Positions 10,518 to 60,614 of a stretch of DNA of 64,000 nucleotides are shown here, in pieces; position 1 is the first letter of the stretch, and the number at the start of each line of letters is the position of its first letter. The translations under genes were made by a program, and so were the position numbers. The notes under the pieces are model-generated. The model saw only the letters and a program-made list of their open reading frames with translations, made no database searches and was not told the DNA's origin. The DNA lies in the NCBI GenBank assembly GCA_963760375.1, contig CAVXCS010000003.1, forward strand, positions 3,590 to 67,589, written 5' to 3'. The stretch comes from an uncultured Flavobacteriaceae bacterium (GTDB lineage: Bacteria; Bacteroidota; Bacteroidia; Flavobacteriales; Flavobacteriaceae).

Positions 10518-13166
10518 TTAGGATTTAGGGAAAAAGTTGCCGATCCGTTTGATGGACTGGGCCATGAGCAGCGAACCAAGTGCAAACAGCGCGATATACG
10601 AATATTGACTTAAGGTAAGGTGGGTCAAGGCGAGGGCTTCGGCAACAACGGGAATTACCGACACCGCAAAGGTCAAAAATGCACATAGCACAATAGCGGC
10701 CCAAACCCAAGGGTTGGCCGTGACCTCATTTTTGAAGAATGACCCCCCGCTTTTTGGAATATTGAAAAGATTGAGCAATTGGGCGAGTATTAAAGTGAAG
10801 AATGCCATATTATTGATCAAACCCGGTTCGAGCTTTAGGGTAAAGTAGCCGAAGGCGGTGATACCAAGTACGGCAGTGCTGATCGATAACCCATAGATCA
10901 ATATTGCATACCAATGCGCTGGTGTTAAAATGGGCTCATCGGGTTTTCTTGGAGGGGTTTGCATCAGTGTGGGATCGCCTTTACCAAGGCCCAAAGCAAG
11001 GGCGGGAAAAATATCGGTGATCAGGTTCAGGAACAAAATCTGTAATGGCAGCAAAGGGGAGGGGAGGTTGATCAAGGCGGCGATTCCCACGGAAACAATT
11101 TCGGCCAGATTGCTCGAAAGCAGGTATACCACAAACTGCCGAATGTTATGATAGATGACCCTGCCTTGTTGAATGGCCAACTCGATGGCCGTAAATTTAT
11201 CGTTCTTCAGGATCATATCGGCGGCCTCACGAGCCGCCTCGGTACCACGGATGCCCATGGCGATGCCAATATCGGCCTTTCGCAAAGCGGGAACATCGTT
11301 GATGCCGTCACCTATCATGGCCACCACATTGTTATTGGCTTGAAAGAATTGTATCAACTTCAATTTTTGTTCCGGGACCACCCTTGCAAAAACCACCGTA
11401 TTCATCAGGGCCGAGGTCATCTTGGTATCCAACGCAGCTTTGATCGGCAGTTCATTGCCATGCCTAACAAATCGATGGGCGTCATCTTTGGTCAAAAGGC
11501 CAATTTCCTGTGCTATTTTTATGGCGGTGCCCATATGGTCCCCAGTCATCATAACGACCCGTATCCCGGCTTTTTTGTAGACTTCGATTGTATGTTTTAC
11601 ATCTTGCCTGGCCGGGTCGATAAAGCCTATGACCCCCAAAAAGGTAAGGTCGTTCAAGATTGCATCCCTTTCCGGCTCCTCTTTGGAGACCCTGGAGGCG
11701 AATGCAATGGTACGCAATCCTTGGGAGGCCAGAGCATCCACCTTTGTCAACCAAGCTTCTTTTGAATTGAAGGCTTGGGCGGTATCCTTTTCGAGTATGG
11801 TATCACAGCATGCCACAATGCCCTCAAAGGCCCCTTTTACATAGGTATGGTAGGCATTTTGGCCCCGGTTCACGGTGGCCATCAATTTGCGATCGGTATT
11901 GAAGGGGAGCTGTTTTAATTCCACATTGTTTTTTTGGGCTTCTTTTGGGTCATAGCCGAGGTTGCTCGCAAAATCGATCAAGGCCTGATCTATGGTATCC
12001 CTGTGCGCATGTTCGTCGGCCAGGGCAACATCGTTGCAAAGCATACAGGCCATGATGATTTCTTGGTACGCACGGTTATCGACGGGCATTTCGGCCATGG
12101 ACTTGGTGTTGAGCCCGGTAATCGAACGCCCATCGTACAATAGGGTGTGTACCCTTAGCAGGTCTTCTGTTAAGGTACCCGTTTTATCGGTACAGATGAT
12201 GTTTGTAGCACCAAGGGTCTCTACCGCTTTGAGGTTCTTGATGATGAGCTGTTTTTTTGACAAGCGTACCATCCCCCTGGCCAGGGCGATCGTGGCAACG
12301 ATCGGTAGGCCCTCGGGTATCGTTGCAACGGCAAGGGCCAAAGCGGTCTCCAACATCAAAAAGAATGCTTTACCCTGAACATATCCGGTAATCATGATAA
12401 GTACGGCCAAAACCAGGGTCAACACGATCAACTTTTTGCTGAGCTTGTTGAGCTTCTTTTCGAGGGGGGTGCGCTCTTCGGTGGCCTCCATGGCCATTTG
12501 ATGGATTTTTCCCAGTTGTGTTCCCTTGCCGGTGGCGGTGACGATGGCTTTCCCGGTGCCACCGGTGACAACGGTACCCCTAAAAACCATGTTGGTTTGC
12601 CCGGTCAAAGGCGTTTTTTGCGATACTGCTGCGGTCCTTTTTTCGATGTCGACGCTTTCCCCGGTTAGGGCAGATTCCCTGACCAAAAGATTTTCTTGTG
12701 ACAGCAGACGGGCATCGGCCGTAACGATATTGCCCACATCGAGAAGAACGATATCTCCGGGCACCAACAAGGAATCGCGAATGCTGCAAATTTCCCCGGA
12801 TCTGATCACGCGGGCCATTGTCTGGCCCAGTTGACGTAACGATTCCAGGGAACGCACCGCCTGTAATTCCATAAAGTAACCGATGGCCACCGTGATCAAG
12901 ATCACAATGGCAATGGCCGATCCTTCGGCCCAATCCTCGAACAGGAAGGCCAAAACCGCGGCGGCACCTAAGATGTAAATAATGGGATCTGTGAACTGTT
13001 CGACAAGAAGGCGGCTCCTCTTTTTTGGCCTTGTTTCGGGCAGCTGATTATTGCCAAGTTGTGCGAGACGATTGGAGGCCTCTTCTTGGGTCAAGCCATA
13101 TTCCCCATCACTTTTTAAGTGTTGAACAACATCCAATATGGTCAGGGAGAATGGGTATTTGATCAT
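10518..13166 (-). CDS. cation-translocating P-type ATPase (type II, Ca/Mg-like)
   Basis: ICTDKTGTLT, MMTGDH and GDGINDVPAL motifs. The track ORF starts at a TTG at 13220; I prefer the ATG at 13166 (MIKYPFSLTILDVV...). Confidence 0.9.
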   Translation of the reverse strand: MIKYPFSLTILDVVQHLKSDGEYGLTQEEASNRLAQLGNNQLPETRPKKRSRLLVEQFTDPIIYILGAAAVLAFLFEDWAEGSAIAIVILITVAIGYFMELQAVRSLESLRQLGQTMARVIRSGEICSIRDSLLVPGDIVLLDVGNIVTADARLLSQENLLVRESALTGESVDIEKRTAAVSQKTPLTGQTNMVFRGTVVTGGTGKAIVTATGKGTQLGKIHQMAMEATEERTPLEKKLNKLSKKLIVLTLVLAVLIMITGYVQGKAFFLMLETALALAVATIPEGLPIVATIALARGMVRLSKKQLIIKNLKAVETLGATNIICTDKTGTLTEDLLRVHTLLYDGRSITGLNTKSMAEMPVDNRAYQEIIMACMLCNDVALADEHAHRDTIDQALIDFASNLGYDPKEAQKNNVELKQLPFNTDRKLMATVNRGQNAYHTYVKGAFEGIVACCDTILEKDTAQAFNSKEAWLTKVDALASQGLRTIAFASRVSKEEPERDAILNDLTFLGVIGFIDPARQDVKHTIEVYKKAGIRVVMMTGDHMGTAIKIAQEIGLLTKDDAHRFVRHGNELPIKAALDTKMTSALMNTVVFARVVPEQKLKLIQFFQANNNVVAMIGDGINDVPALRKADIGIAMGIRGTEAAREAADMILKNDKFTAIELAIQQGRVIYHNIRQFVVYLLSSNLAEIVSVGIAALINLPSPLLPLQILFLNLITDIFPALALGLGKGDPTLMQTPPRKPDEPILTPAHWYAILIYGLSISTAVLGITAFGYFTLKLEPGLINNMAFFTLILAQLLNLFNIPKSGGSFFKNEVTANPWVWAAIVLCAFLTFAVSVIPVVAEALALTHLTLSQYSYIALFALGSLLMAQSIKRIGNFFPKS

Positions 13167-13341
13167 TTTTTGGTCGCGATCGATAAGTTTTCCTTGGAAA
13201 GCCCTTTTAAATTTAGCCAAAATAACAATGCCCTCCTATCTTTCCCAAAGTAACATGGACGCTTTTTTTGGAATCGACAAAAGGGCATTTTAAAAATCTA
13301 TGGCAGCCCATTCGTGATGCTTGCCACAGTATTTCACGTCA

Positions 13342-13806
13342 TTATGAGATTTCAATCTTTTTGGACGGTTTTTTCTTGGCTTCTTCTTTTTTGGCCAGGT
13401 TAAAGCACAGAATGCCATCCTTGTAGGAGGCCTTGATGGCTTCTTCCTTTACGTTCTCAGGCAACTGCAACGACCTTTCAAAAGCATTGTAACTGAATTC
13501 CTGACGGGTATAGTCTTTTTCTTTCTCTTCTTTGGAGGTCGATTTTTCGGCCGAGATGTTCAAACAGCCATCGTCGATGGTCACATTGAAATCTTTTTTG
13601 GAGAAACCGGGTGCGGCCAGTTCAATTTCGAATTTTTCGTCGGTCTCTTTGATGTTCAGGGCTGGTTCTGAGGTTTTGCCGTTCCAAAAACGATCGGGCG
13701 GCATATTTCTGACCCAGTTGCGATTGTCGAAGAAATCATCGATATCAAAAAAGTCTTGAGGTACGAGATTTCCAAAAGGCCTTCTTCTAACTTTTACTAG
13801 TGACAT
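13342..13806 (-). CDS. Hsp20/alpha-crystallin small heat-shock protein
   Basis: 154 aa with an alpha-crystallin domain (FEIELAAPGFSKKDFNVTIDDGCLNISAEK...SYKDGIL). Confidence 0.9.
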   Translation of the reverse strand: MSLVKVRRRPFGNLVPQDFFDIDDFFDNRNWVRNMPPDRFWNGKTSEPALNIKETDEKFEIELAAPGFSKKDFNVTIDDGCLNISAEKSTSKEEKEKDYTRQEFSYNAFERSLQLPENVKEEAIKASYKDGILCFNLAKKEEAKKKPSKKIEIS

Positions 13807-13841: not shown

Positions 13842-13884
13842 CTAAAGTACGTACAGCGCCACCTCGGCAAAATGACCTAGGTCA
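13842..13884 (-). promoter_or_regulatory. motif-B operator plus -7 box (promoter of hsp20 / P-type ATPase)
   Basis: AATGACCTAGGTCAGG with core at 13873-13884. On the minus strand TTTG follows directly, and TACTTTAG lies at 13849-13842, 29.5 bp from the centre. Confidence 0.65.
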
Positions 13885-24256: not shown

Positions 24257-24299
24257 CAAATGTACCGGACCATGCCCGTGTAGAAAATGATATAGGTCA
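24257..24299 (-). promoter_or_regulatory. motif-B operator plus -7 box (promoter of 24218..23547, probably also 23451..22567)
   Basis: AATGATATAGGTCATG with core at 24288-24299. Minus-strand perfect TACATTTG at 24264-24257 starts 29.5 bp from the centre. Confidence 0.7.
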
Positions 24300-34014: not shown

Positions 34015-34067
34015 AAAACTCGAAGTTTATCATGGTCAAGCGCATGATGAAGATCAGTTTTTCGAAT

Positions 34068-35571: not shown

Positions 35572-35574
35572 GGT

Positions 35575-36678: not shown

Positions 36679-36752
36679 CGAAAATACCTTTGAACGGCAG
36701 GTACAACAATGATAATTATCATATGAATGGCCAAGGCTTACCGCTATTTTTG
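36679..36752. promoter_or_regulatory. motif-B operator with -7 boxes on both sides (divergent promoters: pfkB and M50-CBS/Crp3)
   Basis: AATGATAATTATCATA with core at 36710-36721. Plus-strand perfect TATTTTTG lies at 36745-36752 and minus-strand TATTTTCG at 36686-36679. Both start 29.5 bp from the centre. Confidence 0.65.
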
Positions 36753-37740: not shown

Positions 37741-37750
37741 ATGTGATCAA

Positions 37751-38163: not shown

Positions 38164-38211
38164 GATACTGATCAGTATCATCTTCTTTAGAGACAGACTG
38201 TTGTATCTTAA
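38164..38211 (+). promoter_or_regulatory. 16-bp perfect palindrome containing a weak motif-B-like core, plus weak -7 box
   Basis: GATACTGATCAGTATC at 38164-38179. The TGATCAGTATCA core at 38169-38180 fits TGAY-N4-RTCA. TATCTTAA at 38204-38211 starts 29.5 bp from that core's centre but has two mismatches to TAnnTTTG. Confidence 0.35.
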
Positions 38212-40020: not shown

Positions 40021-41036
40021 ACCATCAATATATCTTCACCTCGTTGACCCGTATTTCCAATATGGAAGAAAAAGGGTTCAGTATAAAAAAACTTCCCAAG
40101 GAACAATGGCGTAACGGAGATTATGTGGTCTGTGAAATAGTGAACGCGGGAAGTGAAATCTTGAAACTCGAACTTTCCAATGGCAGAATGCGCGGGGTAA
40201 TAGGAGGGGAGTTCTTGGTAGGTGCCCTTGGCGAACGATTTGCCACGTTGGAAGTCACCGGATCATGGCGCAATGTGGAGGACGACCTTAAAATGAGCGT
40301 TCTTACGGGTGCGGGCCTCCTGGGCAAGTTGACCTCCAAATCTGTATTCCTGCCCCAATTGATGACCGTTGCATATGCCGGCCATGCTTTTAGGGGTTCC
40401 CTAAAACTGACCATGGACCATTTTGTAAAACCCATCGAGCCCCTTCCTTTTGTAACACCTATAATCCTATTCGTGGGCACCTCCATGTCTGCGGGAAAGA
40501 CCACCTCTGCCCGTATCGTAACCAATTTGTTCAAACAGGCAGGGCATAAGGTGGTGGGCGCCAAACTCACCGGTGCGGGTCGTTATAAAGATATCCTCGC
40601 CATTAAGGATGTAGGTGCCGATGCCGTTTACGACTTTGTGGATGTGGGCCTTCCTTCTTCCATTTGTCCGAGAACAGAATATGAGGAAAAGTTGATGCAA
40701 ATGCTCAGTCTGATGGCCAAAGAAAAGGCGGATGTGGCCATAGTTGAAATTGGGGCATCGCCCCTTGAACCGTATAACGGGGATATTGCGATCGAAGCCC
40801 TCAGGGAGTTTGTGAAATGTACCATCTTGAGCGCTTCAGACCCTTATGCGGTCTATGGCTTGATGAAGGCATTCGATATTGTCCCCGACATTGTAACGGG
40901 CATTACCTCCAACACTTTGGCGGGTATCCAAATGGTGGAAAGACTATGTCGGGTGAAGGCGTTGAATTTGATCGATGCCACCACCACAAAAAGGCTCAAG
41001 CAAATTTTAACAAGTACTTCGGGCTTTTCACTTTAA
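40017..41036 (+). CDS. uncharacterised P-loop protein (DUF1611-like?)
   Basis: 339 aa with a Walker A-like motif VGTSMSAGKTTS in mid-protein. Its start overlaps the M20 stop (ATGA). Family assignment is uncertain. Confidence 0.5.
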   Translation: MNHQYIFTSLTRISNMEEKGFSIKKLPKEQWRNGDYVVCEIVNAGSEILKLELSNGRMRGVIGGEFLVGALGERFATLEVTGSWRNVEDDLKMSVLTGAGLLGKLTSKSVFLPQLMTVAYAGHAFRGSLKLTMDHFVKPIEPLPFVTPIILFVGTSMSAGKTTSARIVTNLFKQAGHKVVGAKLTGAGRYKDILAIKDVGADAVYDFVDVGLPSSICPRTEYEEKLMQMLSLMAKEKADVAIVEIGASPLEPYNGDIAIEALREFVKCTILSASDPYAVYGLMKAFDIVPDIVTGITSNTLAGIQMVERLCRVKALNLIDATTTKRLKQILTSTSGFSL

Positions 41037-41045
41037 GGGTTGCCT

Positions 41046-42749
41046 ATGTTGACCAAAAATGCCATACAACTTCTCGAGGACCGTTACCTTTTAAAGAAAG
41101 GGACCAGGGAAACGCCCGACCAAATGTTCCGGAGGGTGGCCAAGTACGTGGCCAGTGCCGAAGAATTCGAAAACATAACATGGGAAGAGACTTTTTATGG
41201 GATGATGAAAAATCTTGAATTTCTGCCCAATTCCCCTACCTTGATGAATGCCGGAGTACCCAACGGACAATTGAGTGCCTGTTTTGTTTTGCCGGTGGAA
41301 GACAGTCTAACTTCCATTTTCACCACCCTAAAAAATGCCGCATTGATCCACCAAAGTGGGGGAGGAACGGGATATAACTTTTCCGATCTCAGGCCCAACG
41401 GCGACCCTGTGAGTGCCACGGGCGGCACCTCTTCAGGGCCCCTTGCCTTCATGGAAATTTACGATTCTGCGACCGAACATGTAAAACAAGGAGGCAAGCG
41501 AAGGGGTGCGAATATGGGCATCCTGAATGTGAACCATCCCGATATCGAGGCATTTATCGTGTCGAAAACGGAGGGGAGGCGATTGCAGAATTTCAATATT
41601 TCCGTGGGTATCACAAACGACTTCATGCAAGCCGTTGCAAAAGAGATTGATTGGACTTTGGTGAATCCCAGAACAAACAAAGTCCAGAAAATAGTTAAGG
41701 CCAAATCGATCTGGGAGGCGATCGTTCGGGAGGCATGGAAAACCGGAGATCCCGGACTGGTATTCTTGGATACGATCAACCATAAGAACCCAACGCCCGA
41801 ACAGGGCAGCATCAAAAGCACCAATCCCTGTGGGGAGGTCCCGCTGCTCGATTACGAAAGCTGTAATCTGGGTTCCTTGAATTTGATGAAGGTCTTGGAA
41901 GATGGCAAAAAAGGAGCTGCCATCAATTGGCATCAGTTGAAATCCAATATTCAGGTAGCCATTCGTTTTTTGGATAATGTGATAACGGTAAACCATTATT
42001 TGCTACCCGAAATAAGGAAAAAGGTATATTTGAACCGTAAAATAGGCTTAGGTGTGATGGGGTGGGCAGAGTTGCTCCTTTCGCTCAACCTTCCCTATGC
42101 TTCCGATGAAGCGGTCGCCTTGGGTGAACGATTGATGGATTTTGTAATGGCAAAGAGTTACGAGGCCTCCGAAGCACTGGCCAAAGAAAGGGGAATCTTT
42201 GATTCGTGGGCTGCAAGCATTCATGCACCCAACATGCCACTCCGGAACGCCACTTGCAATAGCATAGCCCCTACCGGAAGTATTTCGGTCATTGCCAATA
42301 CCTCCTATTCCATCGAGCCGTTATATGCACTGGCCTACGACCGTGTGGGTATTTTGGGCGGTAAAATACAAACTGAAGTCAATGCCGTAGTGATTGAAAA
42401 GTTAAAGCACATGAAACTATGGAATCGGCGAATAAGGGAAGCAATATTGGAAACGGGAAGTATACAGCAGGTCGAGACGCTCCCGAAACAGGTGCGAATG
42501 CTTTTCGAAACGAGCCACGAAATACCATGGGAATATCATTTACTGCATCAGAGGGCTTTTCAAAAGCACACCGACAATGCGGTTTCCAAAACCATCAACC
42601 TTCCGAAAACGGCCACCGAAATGGAAATTTCAAAAATTTACCGGACTGCCTGGGAATATGGCTTAAAGGGCATTACCATTTATCGCGACGGGAGCAAACC
42701 GAATCAAATCCTTCAAAAATGTGGTCTAAACCATAGTATGTCTTGCTGA
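41046..42749 (+). CDS. nrdJ: class II (adenosylcobalamin-dependent) ribonucleotide reductase, short form
   Basis: LSACFVL, the NPCGEVPL active-site loop and YRDGSK are present. A C-terminal Cys pair occurs in ...KCGLNHSMSC. The ATG at 41046 is preferred over the TTG at 41040. Confidence 0.85.
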   Translation: MLTKNAIQLLEDRYLLKKGTRETPDQMFRRVAKYVASAEEFENITWEETFYGMMKNLEFLPNSPTLMNAGVPNGQLSACFVLPVEDSLTSIFTTLKNAALIHQSGGGTGYNFSDLRPNGDPVSATGGTSSGPLAFMEIYDSATEHVKQGGKRRGANMGILNVNHPDIEAFIVSKTEGRRLQNFNISVGITNDFMQAVAKEIDWTLVNPRTNKVQKIVKAKSIWEAIVREAWKTGDPGLVFLDTINHKNPTPEQGSIKSTNPCGEVPLLDYESCNLGSLNLMKVLEDGKKGAAINWHQLKSNIQVAIRFLDNVITVNHYLLPEIRKKVYLNRKIGLGVMGWAELLLSLNLPYASDEAVALGERLMDFVMAKSYEASEALAKERGIFDSWAASIHAPNMPLRNATCNSIAPTGSISVIANTSYSIEPLYALAYDRVGILGGKIQTEVNAVVIEKLKHMKLWNRRIREAILETGSIQQVETLPKQVRMLFETSHEIPWEYHLLHQRAFQKHTDNAVSKTINLPKTATEMEISKIYRTAWEYGLKGITIYRDGSKPNQILQKCGLNHSMSC

Positions 42750-44464: not shown

Positions 44465-44489
44465 ATAGGCCACAATTATCGTGGCCTAT
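44465..44489. terminator. hairpin between convergent slipin and ATPase genes
   Basis: A 9-bp stem, ATAGGCCAC (44465-44473) / GTGGCCTAT (44481-44489), with a 7-nt loop. It overlaps the last codons of the ATPase gene. Confidence 0.55.
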
Positions 44490-47351: not shown

Positions 47352-47518
47352 AATGGTCGTGCTTTAATGAATTGAACATGCAAAATAGGGCGCTAAGGTA
47401 TAAAATAATATGACCGTCATCATACCTATAATATTGGTAAGGCTTGATTTTGCCTACACTTGGAGACTCAATTTGGCCTGTTTCAAGCCTAAAAAAATGG
47501 GCCCCGATTTGGCTTAAG

Positions 47519-47562
47519 TGACCTAAGTCATTTCGAATGATAAAAAAGGAACCTAATTTTTG
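47519..47562 (+). promoter_or_regulatory. motif-B operator plus -7 box (promoter of 47606..47899)
   Basis: AGTGACCTAAGTCATT with core at 47519-47530. TAATTTTTG at 47554-47562 starts 29.5 bp from the centre but has one extra T relative to TAnnTTTG. Confidence 0.6.
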
Positions 47563-48640: not shown

Positions 48641-48683
48641 TAAATGTAAAGAATATTTGAATGCAACATCATGACCCAAGTCA
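48641..48683 (-). promoter_or_regulatory. motif-B operator plus -7 box (promoter of 48580..48071)
   Basis: CATGACCCAAGTCAGC with core at 48672-48683. Minus-strand TACATTTA at 48648-48641 starts 29.5 bp from the centre. Confidence 0.6.
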
Positions 48684-51094: not shown

Positions 51095-51137
51095 TGATAT
51101 AAGTCATTTATGGGCTCAAAAAACACCCTTATTTTTG
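51095..51137 (+). promoter_or_regulatory. motif-B operator plus -7 box (promoter of hpf-usp operon)
   Basis: AATGATATAAGTCATT with core at 51095-51106. Perfect TATTTTTG at 51130-51137 starts 29.5 bp from the centre. Confidence 0.7.
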
Positions 51138-52354: not shown

Positions 52355-53053
52355 TCAGAGCAGATGCAGGGCCATATCCACCATGTCCCTAAAGGTTTTT
52401 TCCCTTTCATCTGCAGAGGAGCGTTCCCCGGTGACCAAAGAGTCGGAAATGGTGAGTATGGCAAGGGCCCTTACATTATATCTTGCTGCGATGGTATATA
52501 GTCCGGATGCTTCCATCTCCACGCAGAGCACACCAAATTTGGCCCACAACTTATAATCCTCGGCATCATCGGTATAGAATTCATCAGAGGACAGTACATT
52601 TCCCGCCTTGATGGCGATCCCCTGCTCCTTGGCGTACAAGGCGGCCTTCATCAAGAGTTCAAAGTTGGCGGTAGGGGAGTAATCGGCATTGATGAATCTG
52701 GAATTGTTGATACCTGAAGTGGTGGAGGCCGCCATGGCCAGCACAATATCCCTGATCTTCACCTCTTTTTGATAGGACCCGGCAGTTCCTACCCTGATAA
52801 TGTTCTTTACCCCATAGTCGTTGATCAGTTCATGGTAATAGATCATCGCCGAAGGAATGCCCATTCCACTTCCTTGTACCGAAACACGCTTCCCGCGGTA
52901 GGTGCCCGTATAGCCCAACATTCCCCTGACATCGTTATAGCAATATGCTTTTTCAAGAAAGGTCTCGGCGATCCATTTGGCGCGCATGGGATCGCCGGGC
53001 ATGAGCACGGTTTCGGCAATGTCTCCTTTTTTGGCTTCGATGTGGGTGCTCAT
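52355..53053 (-). CDS. deoD: purine-nucleoside phosphorylase
   Basis: HIEAKKGDIAETVLMPGDPMRAKWIAETFL...VRGMLGYTGTY...GMGIPS is nearly collinear with E. coli DeoD. Confidence 0.9.
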   Translation of the reverse strand: MSTHIEAKKGDIAETVLMPGDPMRAKWIAETFLEKAYCYNDVRGMLGYTGTYRGKRVSVQGSGMGIPSAMIYYHELINDYGVKNIIRVGTAGSYQKEVKIRDIVLAMAASTTSGINNSRFINADYSPTANFELLMKAALYAKEQGIAIKAGNVLSSDEFYTDDAEDYKLWAKFGVLCVEMEASGLYTIAARYNVRALAILTISDSLVTGERSSADEREKTFRDMVDMALHLL

Positions 53054-53060
53054 GGATTTC

Positions 53061-53708
53061 TTATTTAAGGGTGGCCATCATCGCGGCCCCTGAGGAGGTG
53101 CCGATACGGGAAGCGCCCAAGCTTATATATTTTTTTGCGGTCTCGGCATCCTTGATGCCTCCGGATGCCTTTATTTTTATGGCCTCCCCGACCCACTTTT
53201 TTATCGAGGCAACATCTTCAAAGGTGGCTCCCAACGGACCAAATCCTGTGGAGGTCTTTACGTAATCGGCCCCGGCACGGATGGCCATCTCGCAGGCCAG
53301 GCGTTTCTCGTTGCCATTCAAATAACAGGTCTCGAGAATTACTTTCAACACTTTATCGCCAATGGTATTTTTGACTTTTTCAATTTCGGCCTCCACCAAT
53401 CCATGTTCACCCGATTTCATCCACCCGATGTTCATGACCATATCAATTTCATCCGCTCCAAGTGCAATGGCCTGCCTGGCCTCGGAGCACTTCGTTTCCG
53501 TCAGGTTGGCGCCCGTCGGGAAGCCTACTACGGTAACCAAACGCACTCCGGTACCCCATAGGGCTTTTTTGCAGGTCGCCAAGTGGCATCCATGCACGCA
53601 AACGGCATAAAAGTGATACCTTTTGGCTTCCTCGCACAATGTTGCAACTTCAGATATGGTGGCATCGGGCCTTAACAGGGTTTGATCTATGTAGTTTTCC
53701 AACAGCAC
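53061..53708 (-). CDS. deoC: deoxyribose-phosphate aldolase
   Basis: IDQTLLRPDAT...VCV...VVGFPTG...DMV.N.G...LKVILET..L...VKTSTGF...IKASGGI DERA motifs. Confidence 0.9.
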   Translation of the reverse strand: MLLENYIDQTLLRPDATISEVATLCEEAKRYHFYAVCVHGCHLATCKKALWGTGVRLVTVVGFPTGANLTETKCSEARQAIALGADEIDMVMNIGWMKSGEHGLVEAEIEKVKNTIGDKVLKVILETCYLNGNEKRLACEMAIRAGADYVKTSTGFGPLGATFEDVASIKKWVGEAIKIKASGGIKDAETAKKYISLGASRIGTSSGAAMMATLK

Positions 53709-54112
53709 TATTTCAACAGCAGCCCCAACTTGCCAAGTAAGACCAACTCGCCTTTGTTTTTACCGGAGAAGGCGGCGGCTATGGCATTCGCGGTAGCCAT
53801 GATAAGGTCTTTGAGGTCTTCCGTAAAAACAGTGGGATGTTCCTTGTAAAATTTGGTAAAGGCATCAAAACACGCATTGCTTTGCTTCTCATATTCCAGG
53901 AGCCAGTCAAAAACAATTTCGATTTGGTAGGCGGCGTCGGTGCCATACCGATCTTCAAGCGAATCCACATCGAGCCATTTTTCCCGTATGATCTCTTTGA
54001 GCCGATCTAATTCTTTGATATGTACTGCATCGTCTGCCATGGCGATGGCATAGAACAGTTTTCCCAGGTTTTGGTACAATTGGTGGCCGATTTTCTCAGA
54101 ATTTGTCATCAT
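53708..54112 (-). CDS. TerB-like (tellurite-resistance/DjlA N-terminal-like) protein
   Basis: LGKLFYAIAMADDAVHIKELDRLKEII is a TerB-type helical motif. The stop overlaps the deoC start. Confidence 0.55.
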   Translation of the reverse strand: MMTNSEKIGHQLYQNLGKLFYAIAMADDAVHIKELDRLKEIIREKWLDVDSLEDRYGTDAAYQIEIVFDWLLEYEKQSNACFDAFTKFYKEHPTVFTEDLKDLIMATANAIAAAFSGKNKGELVLLGKLGLLLK

Positions 54113-54134: not shown

Positions 54135-54177
54135 CAAATCTAACTTTAAATTGATTTTCGAGATATGATAAATGTCA
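54135..54177 (-). promoter_or_regulatory. motif-B operator plus -7 box (promoter of terB-deoC-deoD operon)
   Basis: TATGATAAATGTCAGT with core at 54166-54177. Minus-strand perfect TAGATTTG at 54142-54135 starts 29.5 bp from the centre. A plus-strand TAATTTTG at 54189-54196 lies only 17.5 bp from the centre. Confidence 0.65.
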
Positions 54178-54200
54178 GTTATAAAAGCTAATTTTGAAAC

Positions 54201-55724
54201 ATGCAGGTTTTTCAAAAGAACAGTAATATTTTCAACTTGCTTTCGGAAGGGGTGTCCGAAGGCATTATTGTCGTCAATAATGAACAGGTGATTGTGGCCA
54301 CCAATTCGTCCGCGGAGGAGATGTTCGGTTATTCAAAGGATGAATTATTGGGACAATCGTTGAATCTACTGATTCCAACAAAGCATCGACATGCGCATAA
54401 AAATTATGTGACCCATTTCGTGGACAAAAGTGAAAAACGTCAGATGGGTCGAGGTAGAAACCTGTACGGCCTGCACAAAAATGGGGAAGAGTTCCCCCTC
54501 GAAGCGGGTTTAAATCCCTTTGAACTTTATGGATCCCATTATGTCATGGCCCTGGTCATGGATATTACCGAGCGAAAGAAGGCCGAAAAGGAACTGATCC
54601 ATTGGTCGACGATTTTTAACGAATCATTAAATGAGATTTTTATTTTTGATGCGAAGACCCTCCATTTTAAAAATGTGAACAAGGGCGCTCTGAAGAATAT
54701 GGGCTATGATTTGGAAGAATTCAGGAAATTGACGCCCGTTGACATCAAACCCATGTACGATGAAACCGGATTTCGAAATCTGATCGCCCCGTTGCTCGAC
54801 CGGCAAAAGGAAAAATTGGAATTTGAGTCCTTGCACCAACGAAAGGACGGTACTACCTATCCGGTGGAAGTACACTTGCAGATGTCTGACTTGAGCGAAG
54901 AAAAAGTGTTCGTTGCGATCATTTTGGATATTACCGAGAGGAAGAACTATACGGAAAAATTGGAAAGGACCGTTGAAGAACGCACCAAACAGCTCACCGA
55001 TGCCTTGGCGAAGGAGAAAGAACTCAACGAACTGAAGACCCGTTTTTTATCCCTGGTCTCCCACGAGTTCAAGACCCCGTTGAGCAGTATCCTGACCTCG
55101 GTCACCCTGCTGTCGAAATACGACCGGACAGAACAACAGGGCAATCGGGAAAAGCATGTGGACACCATCAAAAACAAGGTGCGTTATTTAGATGCCATCC
55201 TCAACGATTTTCTTTCCCTGGAGCGTTTGGAATCGGGGAAGGTGAATTACAAAATAGATCGCTTTCCCTTGAGCAAATTGATAAACGAAGTGGTATACGA
55301 TGCCAATATGTTGTTGAAGGAGGGCCAAAAAATAATATACCCCCATGATATCGATCATATTACAGTGGCGTTCGAGGAGAAGATCTTAGAGTTGGCCTTG
55401 TCGAATTTGGTACACAACGCCATTAAATATTCGGCCGAGCATACCGTGGTGGAAATTCAGGTGAAGAAAGACAACCAGCTCTTGGAGCTCGATATTATCG
55501 ATCAAGGAATAGGCATTCCGTCCCAAGAGCAAAAACATATTTTTAATCGTTATTTTAGGGCGGAGAACGCCCTCCTGAGCCAAGGCACGGGAATTGGGTT
55601 GAGCATCACCAAACAACATCTTGAAAATTTGGGCGCTTCCCTTAGTTTTGTCAGTGAAGAAAATAAAGGATCTATATTTACGATAAAAATTCCGGAAAAC
55701 ATGGCAGCGAAAGCCACTTCATGA
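54201..55724 (+). CDS. PAS-PAS sensor histidine kinase (HK2)
   Basis: Two PAS domains, HisKA (SHEFKTPL) and HATPase (GTGIGL...NKGSIF) motifs. The C-terminal half is clearly paralogous to HK1. Confidence 0.9.
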   Translation: MQVFQKNSNIFNLLSEGVSEGIIVVNNEQVIVATNSSAEEMFGYSKDELLGQSLNLLIPTKHRHAHKNYVTHFVDKSEKRQMGRGRNLYGLHKNGEEFPLEAGLNPFELYGSHYVMALVMDITERKKAEKELIHWSTIFNESLNEIFIFDAKTLHFKNVNKGALKNMGYDLEEFRKLTPVDIKPMYDETGFRNLIAPLLDRQKEKLEFESLHQRKDGTTYPVEVHLQMSDLSEEKVFVAIILDITERKNYTEKLERTVEERTKQLTDALAKEKELNELKTRFLSLVSHEFKTPLSSILTSVTLLSKYDRTEQQGNREKHVDTIKNKVRYLDAILNDFLSLERLESGKVNYKIDRFPLSKLINEVVYDANMLLKEGQKIIYPHDIDHITVAFEEKILELALSNLVHNAIKYSAEHTVVEIQVKKDNQLLELDIIDQGIGIPSQEQKHIFNRYFRAENALLSQGTGIGLSITKQHLENLGASLSFVSEENKGSIFTIKIPENMAAKATS

Positions 55725-55816: not shown

Positions 55817-56869
55817 ATGAAGAGCGTACTTTTAATCGAAGATGATAAGGCCCTTAGGGAAAATACCGCCGAGCTGCTCGAACTATCGAACTATGCTGTA
55901 ATGACCGCTTCCAATGGGATTATCGGGATACAAATGGCCAAAGATCACCGGCCCGACGTTATTGTATGCGATATCATGATGCCGGAACTCGATGGATACG
56001 GCGTGCTCCAAAGCCTGGCCTCCCATGAAAATACCGTAAACATTCCCTTTATTTTTCTTTCGGCCAAAACAGAGCACAAGGAAATCAGAAAGGGGATGGA
56101 CCTTGGCGCAGACGATTACCTGACCAAACCTTTTGAGGAAGACGACCTGATCAGCGCCATTGAGAGCAGGCTGGCCAAGGCCGAGATATTGGCAAGAATG
56201 AACCAGGCACCTCCGGTTAGATCGGAAATTTCGGATGAAGAGATGCGGTCCTTGAACGAACTCAAGAATTTTTTTGATGATAATGGGGAAGAGGAACGCT
56301 TTGCCGAAGGTCAAATGATCTTCAAGGAAGGTACGCACACCCATAAAATTTACCTTATCCTAAAAGGCTTGGTGAAATGTCATAAAATCGATGCCGATGG
56401 GAAGGAATTGATCACCTCCCTTTACAGGGCAGATGATTTTTTGGGACTGACCTCTTTTATCAACAACGTGCCCTATCAAGAATCGGCAACGGCCATGGAG
56501 GAAGTGGTACTTGTAGGCATTTCAAAGTCGCGGTTAAAGGACGTTTTGGAGCAAAACCATTCCATTTCGCTGGAACTGATGGAACTCTTGACCCAAAACA
56601 TTACCGATATCAAGGGCCAATTGTTGCAGATGGCCTATAGTTCCGTGAGAAAGAAAACCGCCCAAACCCTGCTGCAGTTCGCAGAGGTCTTGAATAAAAA
56701 AACAGAAGATCCCATCAAAATTTCAAGGAACGATCTTGCCAGTGTAGCGGGCATCGCCACCGAAACCCTGATCCGTACGCTTAGCGGATTCAAGAAAGAA
56801 GGCCTCATCGCCATCGAAGGCAGGAACATCAGGATCAAGGAATTGAAAGCCCTGCATCACGTATCATAG
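55817..56869 (+). CDS. response regulator: REC + cNMP-binding + Crp/Fnr-type HTH (RR-Crp2)
   Basis: Same architecture as 5737..6807 and clearly paralogous (LLIEDD...DVIVCDIMMPELDG...GADDYLTKPF). HTH GIATETLIRTLSGFKKEGLI at about 56723-56785. Confidence 0.9.
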   Translation: MKSVLLIEDDKALRENTAELLELSNYAVMTASNGIIGIQMAKDHRPDVIVCDIMMPELDGYGVLQSLASHENTVNIPFIFLSAKTEHKEIRKGMDLGADDYLTKPFEEDDLISAIESRLAKAEILARMNQAPPVRSEISDEEMRSLNELKNFFDDNGEEERFAEGQMIFKEGTHTHKIYLILKGLVKCHKIDADGKELITSLYRADDFLGLTSFINNVPYQESATAMEEVVLVGISKSRLKDVLEQNHSISLELMELLTQNITDIKGQLLQMAYSSVRKKTAQTLLQFAEVLNKKTEDPIKISRNDLASVAGIATETLIRTLSGFKKEGLIAIEGRNIRIKELKALHHVS

Positions 56870-56907: not shown

Positions 56908-56950
56908 TGATATTTATCATAACGGGATTTTATTTAGGGAGCTACATTTG
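56908..56950 (+). promoter_or_regulatory. motif-B operator plus -7 box (promoter of USP-2)
   Basis: AGTGATATTTATCATA with core at 56908-56919. Perfect TACATTTG at 56943-56950 starts 29.5 bp from the centre. Confidence 0.7.
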
Positions 56951-56997: not shown

Positions 56998-57831
56998 ATG
57001 AAGCAGATACTAGTTCCCACCGATTTTTCATCGAACGCATGGAATGCCTTTGAATTTGCCCGAAAGCGATTCGAACATGTTCCCTGTCGGTTTTATATCC
57101 TGCACGTGGCAGACCTTGCCGACTCGCCAGTAGTGTCCAATTCCTTGGTTTTTGCGAAGTCTGAAAACAAAGCTGCCAGAAAAGATTTGCGTACCCTTTT
57201 CGAAAGAATTTCGAGATTACCGCCCAATAAGAACCATAAATTCATGGCACTACAAGAATATGGCTATTTCGTGGATATGGTGCGTAAGTCCATTGCCGAG
57301 AACAACATCGATTTGCTGGTGATGGGAACCAAGGGTGCCGATGGGCTAAAGGAAAGTGTTATCGGCAGCAATACCGGCGATGTCATCCACAAGGTACATT
57401 GCGATATTATGATCGTTCCTGAAAACGCCGTTTTTCGGCCAGTTCATGAAGTGGTATTTCCAACGGAATTCAATGATTTTTACACCCACCATATCCTTGA
57501 ATCCATATCGGATCTTTTGGCCGAAGACCAAACGAATTTGCGTGTGATGCACGTGAAGGTCAACAACGGGAGGCTCAACCAAAATCAGGAATTCAATAGG
57601 GCCTACCTGGAGGATTATCTGGAGGAGGTTGCTGGGAATGCCCATTCTTTCCATACCATCACCAACACCAAGGTATCCAAGGCAATAGAGGTTTTTGTGG
57701 ACCAAATGGGCATCGATTTGGTAGTGATGGTGGCCAAGAATTTAAATTTTCTGCAACAGCTCTTTTTCGATTCCTCGATCAAGAAGCTAAGTTTCCACAC
57801 TGAGGTCCCGATGCTGGTATTGCACGATTAA
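56998..57831 (+). CDS. universal stress protein, tandem Usp domains (USP-2)
   Basis: ILVPTDFSSNAWNA..., MGTKGADGLKESVIGSNT, C-terminal ...VPMLVLHD. Confidence 0.85.
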   Translation: MKQILVPTDFSSNAWNAFEFARKRFEHVPCRFYILHVADLADSPVVSNSLVFAKSENKAARKDLRTLFERISRLPPNKNHKFMALQEYGYFVDMVRKSIAENNIDLLVMGTKGADGLKESVIGSNTGDVIHKVHCDIMIVPENAVFRPVHEVVFPTEFNDFYTHHILESISDLLAEDQTNLRVMHVKVNNGRLNQNQEFNRAYLEDYLEEVAGNAHSFHTITNTKVSKAIEVFVDQMGIDLVVMVAKNLNFLQQLFFDSSIKKLSFHTEVPMLVLHD

Positions 57832-57854
57832 ATGGCTTTTTTTTTCTTCCCCAC

Positions 57855-57897
57855 TGATAATTATCATAGATTTTAGCGACCTGCAACCATACTTTTG
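57855..57897 (+). promoter_or_regulatory. motif-B operator plus -7 box (promoter of USP-3/4/5 operon)
   Basis: ACTGATAATTATCATA with core at 57855-57866. Perfect TACTTTTG at 57890-57897 starts 29.5 bp from the centre. Confidence 0.7.
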
Positions 57898-58041
57898 AAC
57901 GGTAGTGCAATTGTATTTGGGGACAATCCCAGAGCCACGGATATTCTGTTGGCCGCACTGAATAGAATACCTTCGGAGTCCCATTTCAGTTGAAACAGCA
58001 GGTTCACAACTTTTACCGGGTCCCCGATCGACATAAAAAAA

Positions 58042-58893
58042 ATGCTGATGAGAACTGTTTTGATTCCCACCGATTTTTCCGCAAATGCCCGTCATGCCAT
58101 TGATTATGCATTGCAACTCTATAAATGCGAAAAGACCAATTTTCATTTTTTGCATGCCTATTCCGATTCGTTTTACGACTTGTTCAAGGCGGCCAAAACA
58201 GATAAAGTAGAGGAGCAGAAAGAAAAGGCCAAGATCAAATCGGATGCTTCCCTTCAAAAGCTTTTGGAAGAAGTAAGCTCCAAGACGAATAATCCGTTGC
58301 ATACCTACATGTCCATTTCCGCTTTCGACACCTTGGTCGATGCCGTGAACGATTTTGCCAATAAAATAAATGTAGATGCTGTGATCATGGGTACCAAGGG
58401 AGAAACTGCCGACAAAAAGATCACCTTCGGAAGCCACACGGTTCAAGTGTTCAAATATGTAAAATGCCCTGTTTTGGCCATTCCACAACAATGTGAATAC
58501 CAACAACCCAAAAAAATTCTTTTTCCGACCGATTATATGCTGCCTTACAAACGAAGGGAGCTCAAACTCCTCAACGATATGGCGGCCCAATTCAAATCTA
58601 AGATCTACTGTCTGTATTTCTCCGATTTTGAAGAGCTGAGCAATAGGCAGATCGACAACAAAAGGTTCCTGAGGGAATCGCTTTCCAAGGCCTATCTTTT
58701 TTACGAAAGACTGCCGGTCGACAACAAGGCCAAAGCTATTTTGGACTATATCGACAAAAACGATATTTCAATGCTGGTGATGGTGAATTCGCGCCATTCT
58801 TTTTTGGAGGATATGCTCTATCGCTCAACCGTCGATGAAATTGGGTTGCATGCCAACATTCCATTTTTGGTCATGCAAAACCTGCCCAGATAA
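58042..58893 (+). CDS. universal stress protein, tandem Usp domains (USP-3)
   Basis: VLIPTDFSANARHA..., MGTKGETADKKITFGSHT, C-terminal ...IPFLVMQNL. Confidence 0.85.
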   Translation: MLMRTVLIPTDFSANARHAIDYALQLYKCEKTNFHFLHAYSDSFYDLFKAAKTDKVEEQKEKAKIKSDASLQKLLEEVSSKTNNPLHTYMSISAFDTLVDAVNDFANKINVDAVIMGTKGETADKKITFGSHTVQVFKYVKCPVLAIPQQCEYQQPKKILFPTDYMLPYKRRELKLLNDMAAQFKSKIYCLYFSDFEELSNRQIDNKRFLRESLSKAYLFYERLPVDNKAKAILDYIDKNDISMLVMVNSRHSFLEDMLYRSTVDEIGLHANIPFLVMQNLPR

Positions 58894-58909
58894 TTTGATC
58901 CCTTACGAT

Positions 58910-59764
58910 ATGAAGAAAATACTTTTGCCCACCGATTTTTCTGAAAATGCATGGAATGCCATTGCCTATGCACTGGAATTTTTTAAAAATGAAAACTGCA
59001 CCTTTTACATCCTGCATACCTATACCCCTTTGTTCTATCGATTGGATTATATGATGGGCGGTCCGGAATTCAGTGCCGTTCCCGATGTAGGTGTCGATTT
59101 GTCGCTGGCGGGCCTGGAGAAAACCATGACCGACATAAAATCGCGCCATCCCAACAAAAAACATAGTTTTAAAACCGTTTCCGCCTTCAACACCCTCACC
59201 GATGAGATCAACAACCTATGTGAAAGCCATAAGATCGATTTGATCGTGATGGGGACCCAGGGGGCTACCGGAGCCAAGGAAATATTATTGGGCACCAATA
59301 CGGTGTACGTGATCAGAAAGGCCAAGGTGCCCGTATTGGCCATTCCGGAAAATTTCCGTTTCAAGCCGGTCCAAAAGATTTTGTTCGCAGTGGATTATTG
59401 GTCCCGCTATAAGGAGGCCGAGCTTAGATTCCTGAACGAAATGATTCATTTAAATGCCGCAAAGTTGATGGTGATGCATGCCGGTGAAGAGCAGGAATTG
59501 AAGGAAGTGCAGACCAAGAACAAAGCCTATCTGATGGATTATTTTAAGTCGATCGATGCGAAGTTCGAAGAAATGAAAGATCGGTACATGCCCAATGCCG
59601 TTCATGACTACATCGCTGAACAAAGCATAGACCTATTGGCCATGATGAACCGAAAACATTCATTTTTGGATAGACTGTTGGTCAAGCAGAATATAGATGC
59701 CATTGGGTACCATGTCAAAATTCCGTTTTTGGTAATGAAAGACACCGCAAAAATATCTAAATAA
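58910..59764 (+). CDS. universal stress protein, tandem Usp domains (USP-4)
   Basis: ILLPTDFSENAWNA..., MGTQGATGAKEILLGTNT. Start moved to the ATG at 58910, 17 nt after the USP-3 stop. Confidence 0.85.
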   Translation: MKKILLPTDFSENAWNAIAYALEFFKNENCTFYILHTYTPLFYRLDYMMGGPEFSAVPDVGVDLSLAGLEKTMTDIKSRHPNKKHSFKTVSAFNTLTDEINNLCESHKIDLIVMGTQGATGAKEILLGTNTVYVIRKAKVPVLAIPENFRFKPVQKILFAVDYWSRYKEAELRFLNEMIHLNAAKLMVMHAGEEQELKEVQTKNKAYLMDYFKSIDAKFEEMKDRYMPNAVHDYIAEQSIDLLAMMNRKHSFLDRLLVKQNIDAIGYHVKIPFLVMKDTAKISK

Positions 59765-59771
59765 GTAGCCG

Positions 59772-60614
59772 ATGCATAACATATTGCTGCCCACCGATTT
59801 TTCAGATGACGCATGGAATGCCATTTTTACTGCGCTAAAACTCTTTAACAAAGAAGAATGTAAGTTTTATCTGTTGAATGCCTACGAGCCCAATCTGCTG
59901 AACATTCTGGGCGACAAAAGTGAACAGCGCCTCGCGGCCATCTACGATTCCCTCGCCACCGAATCGCAACTGAAACTAAAGGAATCGTTAGCATACCTGA
60001 TCAAAAATCACGAGAATCCGAAACACAGTTTTGAAACTGTTTCAAAACGGGACGGCTTGGTGAATGCGGTTCGAGACCTTCAAAAACAACAGGGTTTTGA
60101 GCTGGTGGTCATGGGCACCAAAGGGGCGACCGGGGCAAAAGAGGTTTTTGTGGGGAGCAATACCGTTAAGGTGATCAAGGATATGCGGACTTGTCCGATT
60201 TTGGCGGTGCCGGGAGATTATAATTTTCAGGTATTGAAACAAATCGTTTTACCGACCGACTATACACATACATTTAAGGGGCCGGCACTTGCGTTGCCCA
60301 AATCCCTGGCCAAAAAGTGGGGTGCGCTGATCCACATCCTGTACGCCTCATCGGGACAAGATCTTGACCGGGAACAGCAAACCCATAAAAAACAGCTCGA
60401 GGCCCTCTTGGATGGTCTTCATCTAAACTTCCAGGAAATTGCGTTACAGGCCGATGTGTCGGATGCCATTGAAAGTTACGTTGGCGAGATCAATGCAGAT
60501 TTACTTATTTTGGTGCATCACCGGCACAGCTTTTTCGAAAAATTGACCAGGGAGGCGGTCATCAAAAAAATAGCCTTCAAATCGGAAGTTCCTTTATTGG
60601 TCATTCCTGATTGA
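59772..60614 (+). CDS. universal stress protein, tandem Usp domains (USP-5)
   Basis: ILLPTDFSDDAWNA..., MGTKGATGAKEVFVGSNT. It starts 8 nt after the USP-4 stop. Confidence 0.85.
   Translation: MHNILLPTDFSDDAWNAIFTALKLFNKEECKFYLLNAYEPNLLNILGDKSEQRLAAIYDSLATESQLKLKESLAYLIKNHENPKHSFETVSKRDGLVNAVRDLQKQQGFELVVMGTKGATGAKEVFVGSNTVKVIKDMRTCPILAVPGDYNFQVLKQIVLPTDYTHTFKGPALALPKSLAKKWGALIHILYASSGQDLDREQQTHKKQLEALLDGLHLNFQEIALQADVSDAIESYVGEINADLLILVHHRHSFFEKLTREAVIKKIAFKSEVPLLVIPD

Follow-up and report, generated by a model that had tools for sequence, protein, structure and literature searches.

A conserved stress-survival regulon of Flavobacteriaceae behind an FNR-like box, with low oxygen as its probable signal

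We have examined a 64,000-nt stretch of DNA (the window) from an uncultured Flavobacteriaceae bacterium (NCBI GenBank assembly GCA_963760375.1, contig CAVXCS010000003.1, positions 3,590 to 67,589 of the forward strand). It brings together genes for five universal stress proteins (USPs), the small heat-shock protein Hsp20, two P-type ATPases, the hibernation factor HPF, an M50 protease with CBS domains (M50-CBS), a PfkB-subfamily kinase and a class II ribonucleotide reductase (RNR). It also encodes two pairs, each made up of a sensory histidine kinase (HK) with a response regulator (RR) whose receiver domain (REC) is fused to a Crp-type DNA-binding domain, HK1-RR-Crp 1 and HK2-RR-Crp 2. A first-pass annotation, made from the sequence alone, had placed many of these genes behind a common promoter motif and likened them to the DosR dormancy regulon of Mycobacterium tuberculosis. 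When about 60 open reading frames (ORFs) of the window were scanned against Pfam and NCBIfam, every gene family named in that annotation was found where it had been placed (Table 1). The RNR (569 aa) scored 672.7 bits on the NrdJ_Z model TIGR02504 (cut-off 399.95) and is therefore a B12-dependent, O2-independent class II enzyme of the NrdJ/NrdZ type, and the kinase scored 292 on TIGR03168 (hexose-kinase/PfkB subfamily; cut-off 216), so that the nrdZ-like and PfkB assignments hold. All five USPs contain two USP stretches per protein in Pfam, and a motif scan of USP2 to USP5 (56998..60614) located the ATP motif G-2x-G-9x-G[ST] in the N-terminal domain only. These genes belong to a regulon that can be recognised across Flavobacteriaceae by its gene families, its motif, the conservation of that motif, a fixed promoter geometry and synteny.

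The motif, named motif-B in the annotation, had been left undefined there, and we rediscovered it from the listed promoters as the palindrome aTGAY-N4-RTCAt (hereafter the box). Its core, TGAY-N4-RTCA (TGAYNNNNRTCA), occurs at 24 sites of the window versus 4.54 ± 2.09 expected, and none of 100 shuffled sequences reached 24. Eighteen of these sites are intergenic, in a window whose intergenic share is only ~12%. A box was present upstream of every gene or operon of the motif-B list, the RNR operon included. Five sites (1324, 4719, 9498, 60975 and 62532) fall outside the region covered by that list, on both sides of it, which extends the regulon beyond 10518-60614. The block from 14 to 34 kb, with genes for RND efflux and sulphur oxidation, mostly carries another palindrome.

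The promoters behind the box share a strict architecture. Bacteroidetes promoters are of the -7/-33 type, with TAnnTTTG as the -7 element. Alignment of 570 oriented sites revealed, exactly 23 nt downstream of the box, a block reading T (.85), A (.87), n, n, T (.88), T (.91), T (.77), then A/G, and among sites followed by an exact TAnnTTTG the spacer was 23 nt in 164 of 208. Within the window, 17 of the 18 intergenic sites have a correctly spaced -7 box (at least 5/6) in at least one direction, the exception being 42777, while this holds for none of the six coding sites. Because the 23-nt spacer is fixed and the geometry of the Bacteroidetes -7 element is established, the centre of the box is predicted to lie at about -41/-42, in place of the -33 element, where a class II activator would sit. 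This is the position used by FNR, Anr and FixK. The -7 geometry also sets the direction of the sites: 9498 points to the HK1-RR-Crp 1 operon and 54166 to the orf134-deoC-PNP operon, and 36710, 51095 and 60975 are bidirectional.

To follow the regulon in relatives, we used 80 loci (1.5 Mb; at least 12 Flavobacteriaceae genera) retrieved by a genome scan with RR-Crp 2. The closest named relatives were a Maribacter-like metagenome-assembled genome (93%) and Arenibacter, Pricia, Zobellia and Aquimarina (66-77%). Box density in these loci was 2.13 per kb in intergenic versus 0.07 per kb in coding DNA (~30-fold). Intergenic boxes numbered 472, whereas control patterns of the same composition, with altered spacing or permuted half-sites, gave 8-21, which places the box at least 22-fold above these controls in the intergenic DNA of the 80 loci; in the window the enrichment is 5-fold. 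An orthologue was counted as box-bearing if a site lay at most 250 bp upstream. By this measure orf134 is the best-conserved target of the box (61/64 loci, 95%), followed by the orthologues of M50-CBS (18/20 loci, 90%), P-type ATPase (9/10, 90%), Hsp20 (9/10, 90%), USP2 (81 of 93 genes, 87%), USP3 (79%) and HPF (15/21 loci, 71%), and a site preceded all orthologues of DUF2267 (9/9 loci) and DUF6799 (6/6 loci). P-type ATPase 2 is thus a regulon member in relatives. The bidirectional M50-CBS/PfkB box recurs in locus L086. RNR is rare in the 80 loci, and its homologues were looked up separately. In Muricauda the RNR gene follows a box with a perfect -7 box at a distance of 67 nt (L089), in Maribacter halichondriae a two-gene RNR operon follows a box with a proper -7 box (L088), and in Saonia flava (L087) a bidirectional box separates the gene for uracil phosphoribosyltransferase (UPRT) from PfkB-small ORF-RNR, inside a compact cluster of LOV/GAF kinase, patatin, ATPase, Hsp20, UPRT, PfkB and RNR. 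A metagenome scan with the RNR protein returned five loci, of which one was moderately related (58%), and was unusable for footprinting. Other genes behind the box in relatives encode thioredoxin, acylphosphatase, 1-Cys peroxiredoxin, HemN and archease. The hemN, thioredoxin and peroxiredoxin genes, together with the O2-independent RNR, make a link to oxygen plausible.

The annotation had also proposed that the gene set is wired to Crp-type regulators, and this agrees with the comparison: the box is a Crp/Fnr palindrome, and the REC-cNMP-HTH_Crp regulators adjoin targets in 79/80 loci and have an invariant E...R helix. HK2 lies immediately upstream of RR-Crp 2 in 77 of the 80 loci, and a USP gene immediately downstream in 79. 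In 80 orthologues of RR-Crp 2, neither its recognition helix (IATETLIRTLS) nor its phospho-acceptor segment (VCDIMMPE) varies. RR-Crp 1 shares 42% identity with RR-Crp 2, along with the T-E-T-x-I-R pattern of the helix. Aligned to R-E-T-V-x-R of CRP, the two helices read T-E-T-L-I-R and T-E-T-A-I-R, with Thr at the position of Arg180; they keep the Glu and Arg of FNR (E-T-I-S-R) without the first Arg of CRP. Neither has FNR Ser212, the reader of the outer T of TTGAT, and this fits the alignment of the 570 sites, where the position ahead of TGAT holds A or C and hardly ever T. The RR-Crps contain one or two Cys each, with no Cys cluster, and carry the REC at the N terminus, which argues that they are not Fe-S sensors and that control must run through the receiver domain. 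These two regulators, whose family counts more than 8000 database relatives, are the best candidates to bind the box, with TGATAATTATCA as the candidate target of RR-Crp 2.

As for the signals, a PDB comparison of the HK2 PAS domain gave FixL haem domains as its best matches (1d06, 1dp6; E 1.3e-15), with E. coli DosP also among them, and the His aligned to the proximal His of FixL is at least 95% conserved in 37 orthologues. This best match to FixL/DosP haem sensors and the conserved His make a hypoxia input plausible, and we propose HK2 as a putative FixL-like haem-PAS O2 sensor. HK1 has a canonical LOV domain as its second PAS domain (GRNCRFLQ present; LOV-structure match E 4e-40). With this bona fide LOV domain in HK1, a light input becomes plausible as well, and the HK1-RR-Crp 1 pair would probably supply it as a blue-light input.

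We infer four things from the sequence: an RR-Crp as the binder of the box, its activation by phosphorylation, O2 as the signal, and quiescence or anoxic survival as the output. In the mechanism that we propose, a fall in O2 would lead HK2 to phosphorylate the receiver domain of RR-Crp 2; the activated dimer would bind aTGAY-N4-RTCAt and, from its place at about -41, recruit RNA polymerase to promoters that lack a -33 element, by class II activation. HK1 and RR-Crp 1, whose genes lie behind the same box, would add a blue-light input at the same operator. The output would comprise ribosome hibernation (HPF), ATP-binding USPs, a small heat-shock protein, cation pumping and an intramembrane protease, as well as nucleoside salvage (deoC, PNP, PfkB, and UPRT in relatives) and O2-independent synthesis of deoxynucleoside triphosphates (dNTPs). 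Further targets would be a second Crp/Fnr regulator, encoded with M50-CBS, and several small proteins of no assigned function. Taken together, we consider it probable, if well short of certain, that this conserved stress-survival regulon is of the FNR/Anr/FixK type and serves a low-oxygen programme that is probably also modulated by light.

Several points weigh against this interpretation. The RNR-operon box at 38169 has a weak -7 box and shows one mismatch in the nearest relative, L086 (86%-identical). The HK2 PAS domain is without some FixL residues, the position of Arg206 of Bradyrhizobium japonicum FixL not being conserved, and a conserved His is not proof of haem binding; for haem-PAS domains, NO, CO and redox state are further possible signals. 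The presence of a LOV-kinase paralogue suggests that oxygen may be no more of a signal to the regulon than light or general stress. Our view spans 64 kb, and a further Crp/Fnr protein of the same specificity may be encoded in the remainder of the genome. Finally, all 80 comparison loci were picked through RR-Crp 2, so that the set consists of loci with this regulator.

The first alternative, which we judge unlikely, is a general-stress, stationary-phase or light/dark regulon instead of a hypoxia regulon, with HK2 sensing redox, NO, CO or another ligand and the LOV kinase as the main input. LOV kinases and YtvA do feed general stress responses in Alphaproteobacteria and Bacillus. The canonical LOV domain of HK1, the position of its operon behind the same box and the helix residues common to both RR-Crps would all be expected on such a reading, and USPs, Hsp20, HPF and YtxH are generic stress proteins. 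Against it, the kinase invariably linked to the core of the regulon is the FixL-like one (77/80 loci), the LOV kinase being so linked in 2/80; hemN and an O2-independent RNR are typical low-oxygen targets; and in Burkholderia cenocepacia low O2 specifically induces the same gene set.

Less likely still, another Crp/Fnr protein encoded elsewhere in the genome, such as a classical Fe-S FNR, might bind the box, the REC-Crps having other targets and their adjacency to USP genes reflecting coincidence or co-regulation. TGA-N6-TCA is indeed the generic FNR/Anr/FixK core, only 64 kb of the genome are in view, and the binder is deduced indirectly. On the other side stand the order HK2-RR-Crp 2-USP, almost invariant across at least 12 genera, and the FNR-type Glu and Arg in the RR-Crp helix; in addition, the sole other Crp/Fnr protein of the window differs in its helix (SRVVISR) and in the palindrome near it.

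The likeness to DosR deserves separate treatment. Rv0079 of the DosR regulon is HPF-like. Other DosR members of M. tuberculosis include hspX, seven USPs, ctpF, nrdZ, pfkB, the zinc metalloprotease Rv2625c, a phosphoribosyltransferase and Rv2630, annotated as a probable archease (PMC4082495, PMC7753917). The annotation had counted seven shared families (alpha-crystallin, USPs, ctpF, nrdZ, pfkB, the Rv2625c protease and HPF-like), and all of them are present in the window at the level of the family, with the phosphoribosyltransferase and archease families added in relatives; a haem-based kinase input, predicted here for HK2, would be a further likeness. The parallel fails for regulator type, operator, sensor domain and several hallmark members. 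DosR is of the NarL/LuxR type, of which the window has no member, whereas the window regulators are REC-cNMP_binding-HTH_Crp_2 proteins; DosS and DosT sense through a GAF-haem, whereas HK2 would sense through PAS, and the GAF domain of HK1 is accompanied by LOV. The DosR box GGGAC-N4-GTCCC, strict or relaxed, is absent from the whole window, and no Acg-type nitroreductases, tgs1, narK2/narX or fdxA were found among the ~60 window genes scanned against Pfam. USP1 matches Rv2623 at E 1e-5, more weakly than it matches archaeal USPs, and USP2 has no match to Rv2623 at E 1e-3, which led us to reject orthology to the mycobacterial USPs. One could take the likeness for a superficial one, with no need to assume a programme shared with mycobacteria, a reading that we judge very improbable. 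In its favour, sugar kinases, P-type ATPases, USPs and small heat-shock proteins are very common, so that seven families in 50 kb would say little, the similarity is at family level only (USP1 at E 1e-5, USP2 without a match) and many DosR members and the DosR box are missing. Against it, the shared families sit behind one operator here and in relatives, where genes of two more DosR-regulon families, phosphoribosyltransferase and archease, also follow the box, and class II RNR, PfkB, alpha-crystallin, multiple USPs and a cation ATPase recur in the low-O2-induced lxa locus of B. cenocepacia.

This lxa locus is the closest known analogue, much closer than DosR. According to the published text and Table 4 used for the comparison (Sass et al. 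2013, PMC3721108), it comprises ~50 genes, among them six USPs, alpha-crystallin, a class II RNR beside a PfkB-type kinase, a cation-transporting ATPase, cytochrome c, Crp/Anr-like regulators and a two-component system, and carries a TGA-N6-TCA motif; low O2 induces the lxa families 15- to 240-fold, and deletion of the locus lowers anoxic survival. On this published account, clustered USPs, alpha-crystallin, class II RNR, PfkB-type kinase, cation ATPase, Crp-type regulators and TGA-N6-TCA are common to both systems. In contrast to the stand-alone Anr-like CRP proteins and separate two-component system of lxa, the receiver is here fused to Crp, and the window promoters are of the Bacteroidetes -7/-33 type. 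The lxa genes for polyhydroxyalkanoate synthesis, alcohol dehydrogenase and nitroreductase, as given in the published text, are absent from the window, and HPF, M50-CBS and deoC-PNP are not among the lxa genes listed in the passages compared. The lxa authors themselves drew the comparison with DosR in 2013, as the same source records, and the idea of a DosR-like set under Crp-type regulators, which the annotation had put forward, was therefore already in print for B. cenocepacia (PMC3721108). The annotation's remark that it knew of no description of such a regulon in Flavobacteriia stands, since neither the regulon nor its REC-Crp regulators appeared in the literature searched, whose coverage left out most subscription-journal papers.

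The two components of the system are reminiscent of other known circuits. As in FNR, Anr and FixK, an HTH_Crp regulator keeps the FNR Glu and Arg (ETLIR, ETAIR), and a TTGAT-N4-ATCAA-like (TGA-N6-TCA) box lies upstream of the targets at a predicted class II position; unlike FNR and Anr, the RR-Crps have no N-terminal Cys cluster for [4Fe-4S], and the box has A or C where TTGAT has its outer T. HK2 would be a FixL-type PAS kinase, its haem being predicted from the PDB matches and the aligned proximal His. Here the three-step chain of the rhizobial FixL-FixJ-FixK system, in which FixL acts through FixJ on fixK transcription, would be collapsed to one step by the fusion of REC to Crp; the window contains no FixJ-type (REC-LuxR) gene, and no genes for cbb3 oxidase or denitrification were seen among the targets in the DNA available. 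The targets themselves follow a known pattern, as USPs and small heat-shock proteins are named among FixK/FnrL targets of Alphaproteobacteria, and Anr-dependent USPs in Pseudomonas extend it, both according to published work. Anoxia-induced genes of Sphingopyxis are those for USPs, thioredoxin and peroxiredoxins and the sulphur-detoxification operons. With the LOV-kinase stress systems, HK1 shares a canonical LOV domain (GRNCRFLQ) and a partner regulator whose target is probably a stress regulon, but the output of this putative branch would be a REC-Crp on an FNR-like box instead of the sigma-factor partner-switching of the LOV/YtvA systems, and the LOV domain of HK1 is known from its sequence.

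What is new here is the phylum, the receiver-Crp fusion that would collapse FixL-FixJ-FixK, the putative paralogous LOV branch and a box predicted to replace the Bacteroidetes -33 element; conceptually, this extends an established pattern and brings no new principle, and the interpretation is supported in part. A wider claim, which we put forward tentatively, is that strictly aerobic marine Flavobacteriaceae possess a dedicated regulon for dormancy or anoxic persistence, the first defined in Bacteroidota, controlled by a one-step REC-Crp family in which a FixL-like O2 branch and a LOV blue-light branch converge on one FNR-like operator in place of the -33 element, so that oxygen and light jointly gate the output. 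If the interpretation is true, this would be the first defined low-oxygen survival regulon of Bacteroidota, complete with operator, promoter geometry and candidate sensors, and the receiver-Crp fusions, a large uncharacterised family, would gain a function as well as a DNA site. Oxygen and light together would then report the position of the cell in a particle, biofilm or sediment and gate HPF hibernation, USPs, chaperones, salvage and dNTP supply. The recurrent survival set (USPs, alpha-crystallin, class II RNR, PfkB, cation ATPase, HPF) would stand under unrelated regulators: DosR in Actinobacteria, Anr/FNR/FixK in Proteobacteria and now those of Flavobacteriaceae. Fluctuating oxygen is a feature of the particles and surfaces on which marine Flavobacteriaceae act as major degraders of algal polysaccharides, and the regulon is therefore of ecological relevance; it can be tested in the culturable genera Zobellia, Arenibacter and Maribacter.

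Table 1. Boxes, genes and second palindromes of the window (positions count from its first letter)
Feature	Position	Strand	Remarks
Box upstream of orf128 (1406-1792; helical, no family)	1324..1335	+	
Box upstream of YtxH (4803-5132) and next gene (5139-5489)	4719..4730	+	
Box toward HK1-RR-Crp 1 operon	9498..9509	-	-7 box TACATTTG, 23 nt away
Box upstream of Hsp20	13873..13884	-	-7 box TACTTTAG
Box upstream of DUF6799 (23547-24218)	24288..24299	-	
Box upstream of MBL-rhodanese protein (32529-33944)	34045..34056	-	
Bidirectional box, M50-CBS / PfkB	36710..36721		-7 boxes TATTTTCG / TATTTTTG
Box upstream of flavin reductase-M20-orf339-RNR operon	38169..38180	+	weak -7 box TATCTTAA
Box upstream of 58-aa membrane ORF (47175-47351, -)	47411..47422	-	
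Box upstream of Zn_ribbon_2 (47606-47899)	47519..47530	+	
Box upstream of orf169 (48071-48580)	48672..48683	-	
Bidirectional box, HPF-USP1 / DUF2267	51095..51106		-7 boxes TATTTTTG / CATCTTTA
Box driving orf134-deoC-PNP	54166..54177	-	-7 box TAGATTTG
Box upstream of USP2	56908..56919	+	-7 box TACATTTG
Box upstream of USP3-USP4-USP5	57855..57866	+	-7 box TACTTTTG
Bidirectional box, orf91 (60652-60927, -) / ROK-family kinase (61045-62019, +)	60975..60986		
Box upstream of orf150 (62016-62468), paralogue of orf128	62532..62543	-	
YtxH	4803-5132	+	Pfam; next gene 5139-5489
HK1 (PAS-LOV-GAF-PAS-HisKA-HATPase; 6785-9343) and RR-Crp 1 (5737-6807)	5737..9343	-	Pfam
P-type ATPase 1, type II-like	10518-13220	-	Pfam; type II-like by NCBIfam
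Hsp20	13342-13806	-	Pfam
DUF6799	23547-24218	-	Pfam
MBL-rhodanese protein, persulfide-dioxygenase-like	32529-33944	-	Pfam
210-aa Crp/Fnr regulator	34939-35571	-	Pfam; starts 4 nt after M50-CBS (pair spans 34939..36660)
M50 peptidase with CBS	35575-36660	-	Pfam
PfkB-subfamily kinase	36775-37740	+	Pfam; with DUF302 protein in 36775..38137
Flavin reductase-M20 hydrolase-orf339 (P-loop, no family)-class II RNR operon	38237..42749	+	Pfam, NCBIfam
P-type ATPase 2	44476-46980	-	Pfam
Zn_ribbon_2	47606-47899	+	Pfam
DUF2267	50588-51064	-	Pfam
HPF/S30AE, 100 aa	51159-51461	+	Pfam
USP1, tandem-domain	51476-52318	+	Pfam
orf134-deoxyribose-phosphate aldolase (DeoC)-purine nucleoside phosphorylase (PNP) operon	52355..54112	-	Pfam; gene order conserved
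HK2 (PAS, residues 16-131; second PAS; HisKA; HATPase)	54201..55724	+	Pfam
RR-Crp 2 (REC, cNMP-binding-like, HTH_Crp)	55817..56869	+	Pfam
USP2	56998-57831	+	Pfam
USP3	58042-58893	+	Pfam
USP4	58835-59764	+	Pfam
USP5	59772-60614	+	Pfam
ROK-family kinase	61045-62019	+	Pfam
GTAAC-N4-GTTAC, exact	22438, 24340, 30137, 34001, 34918		
GTAAC-N4-GTTAC, one mismatch	25099, 26102, 26252, 40893		

With regard to the ATPase genes, the 121-nt gap between Hsp20 and P-type ATPase 1 contains neither a terminator on the - strand nor a box of its own, and the two genes (10518..13806, -) are probably one operon. No usable operator of P-type ATPase 2 was found in the window, in agreement with the first-pass annotation; the nearest site, 47411, serves the 58-aa ORF, and a terminator-like hairpin (47145-47128) between that ORF and the ATPase gene would explain the lack of an operator here. 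No one-mismatch box with a proper -7 box exists in the intergenic DNA of the window, and hence there are no hidden operators for ATPase 1 or ATPase 2. The box-like sequence at 42777-42788 (TGACCGTCGTCA) lies just past the RNR stop codon and has a poor -7 box in both directions; L086 contains a similar sequence at the same place, and the match may be due to chance.

Site 54166 is also followed, after only 11 nt, by a perfect -7 box, TAATTTTG (54189-54196), which stands just before the HK2 start codon (ATG, 54201). The HK2 promoter is thus overlapped by the box at a non-activating distance, which hints at negative autoregulation, and the HK2 mRNA may be leaderless. A minor spacer peak at 11-12 nt (13 sites) in the histogram of the 80 loci may correspond to this arrangement of the HK2 promoter in relatives.

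The second palindrome, GTAAC-N4-GTTAC, has nine hits in the window versus 0.59 expected and is probably the other motif of the annotation. Its sites are concentrated at 22-35 kb, upstream of the RND efflux operon, DUF6799, an SQR-like oxidoreductase, MBL-rhodanese and TauE. The 210-aa Crp/Fnr protein, which has no Glu in its SRVVISR helix and contains a C-x5-CC motif, is the likely binder, to judge from its sequence and surroundings; the same helix without Glu and the GTAAC-N4-GTTAC sites around its gene ruled it out as the binder of the box. Because this gene trails M50-CBS by 4 nt in a box-driven operon, its product is probably the second tier of a cascade, which suggests a two-tier cascade leading to sulphide detoxification.

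No usable match was obtained for orf134, orf150, orf169, orf215 and orf339 in Pfam (lenient threshold) or NCBIfam (E ≤0.001); at the same thresholds orf91 gave only a sub-threshold match to copper chaperones, and orf128 and orf135 had no family in the Pfam scan. The orf134 gene (53708-54112, -) belongs to a family of ~970 members, some of them named 'DjlA N-terminal' or 'TerB' in UniRef; by these names it is TerB/DjlA-N-like, and it is divergent from HK2 in 50 of the 80 loci. The RNR operon consists of four overlapping or abutting genes with RNR last, preceded directly by orf339 (339-aa P-loop protein; 40017-41036, +). The pairing of P-loop protein and RNR recurs on a distant high-G+C metagenome contig (L081 1-902), whose RNR is 58% identical, and orf339 may be an RNR accessory factor.

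Two genes found behind the box in relatives can be placed precisely: archease, with a perfect -7 box, in Maribacter halichondriae (L088 1-150), and hemN, for the oxygen-independent coproporphyrinogen oxidase (L005 6818-8179). The latter gene is a classic FNR/Anr target.

A mobile origin of the region found no support, the G+C content being flat (0.42-0.49) and the window having no tRNA genes and no integrase. The UPRT gene of the window (15247-15899, -) is frameshifted, residues 1-62 and 52-217 being recovered by tblastn in different frames, and the neighbouring gene for an MFS transporter (14027-15218, +) is split into two overlapping ORFs; both are pseudogenes or sequencing errors. In relatives an intact UPRT gene stands beside box-driven M50-CBS, PfkB or Hsp20 genes. 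Finally, the window encodes three paralogous helical proteins of ~130-150 aa and no family (1406-1792, +; 4004-4411, -; 62016-62468, -) that share an N-terminal W..E..FWKDE.KFF-like motif. Two of them lie directly behind a box with a -7 box (1324 and 62532) and the third is 308 nt from box 4719, and a similar family sits behind the box in 10 other loci.

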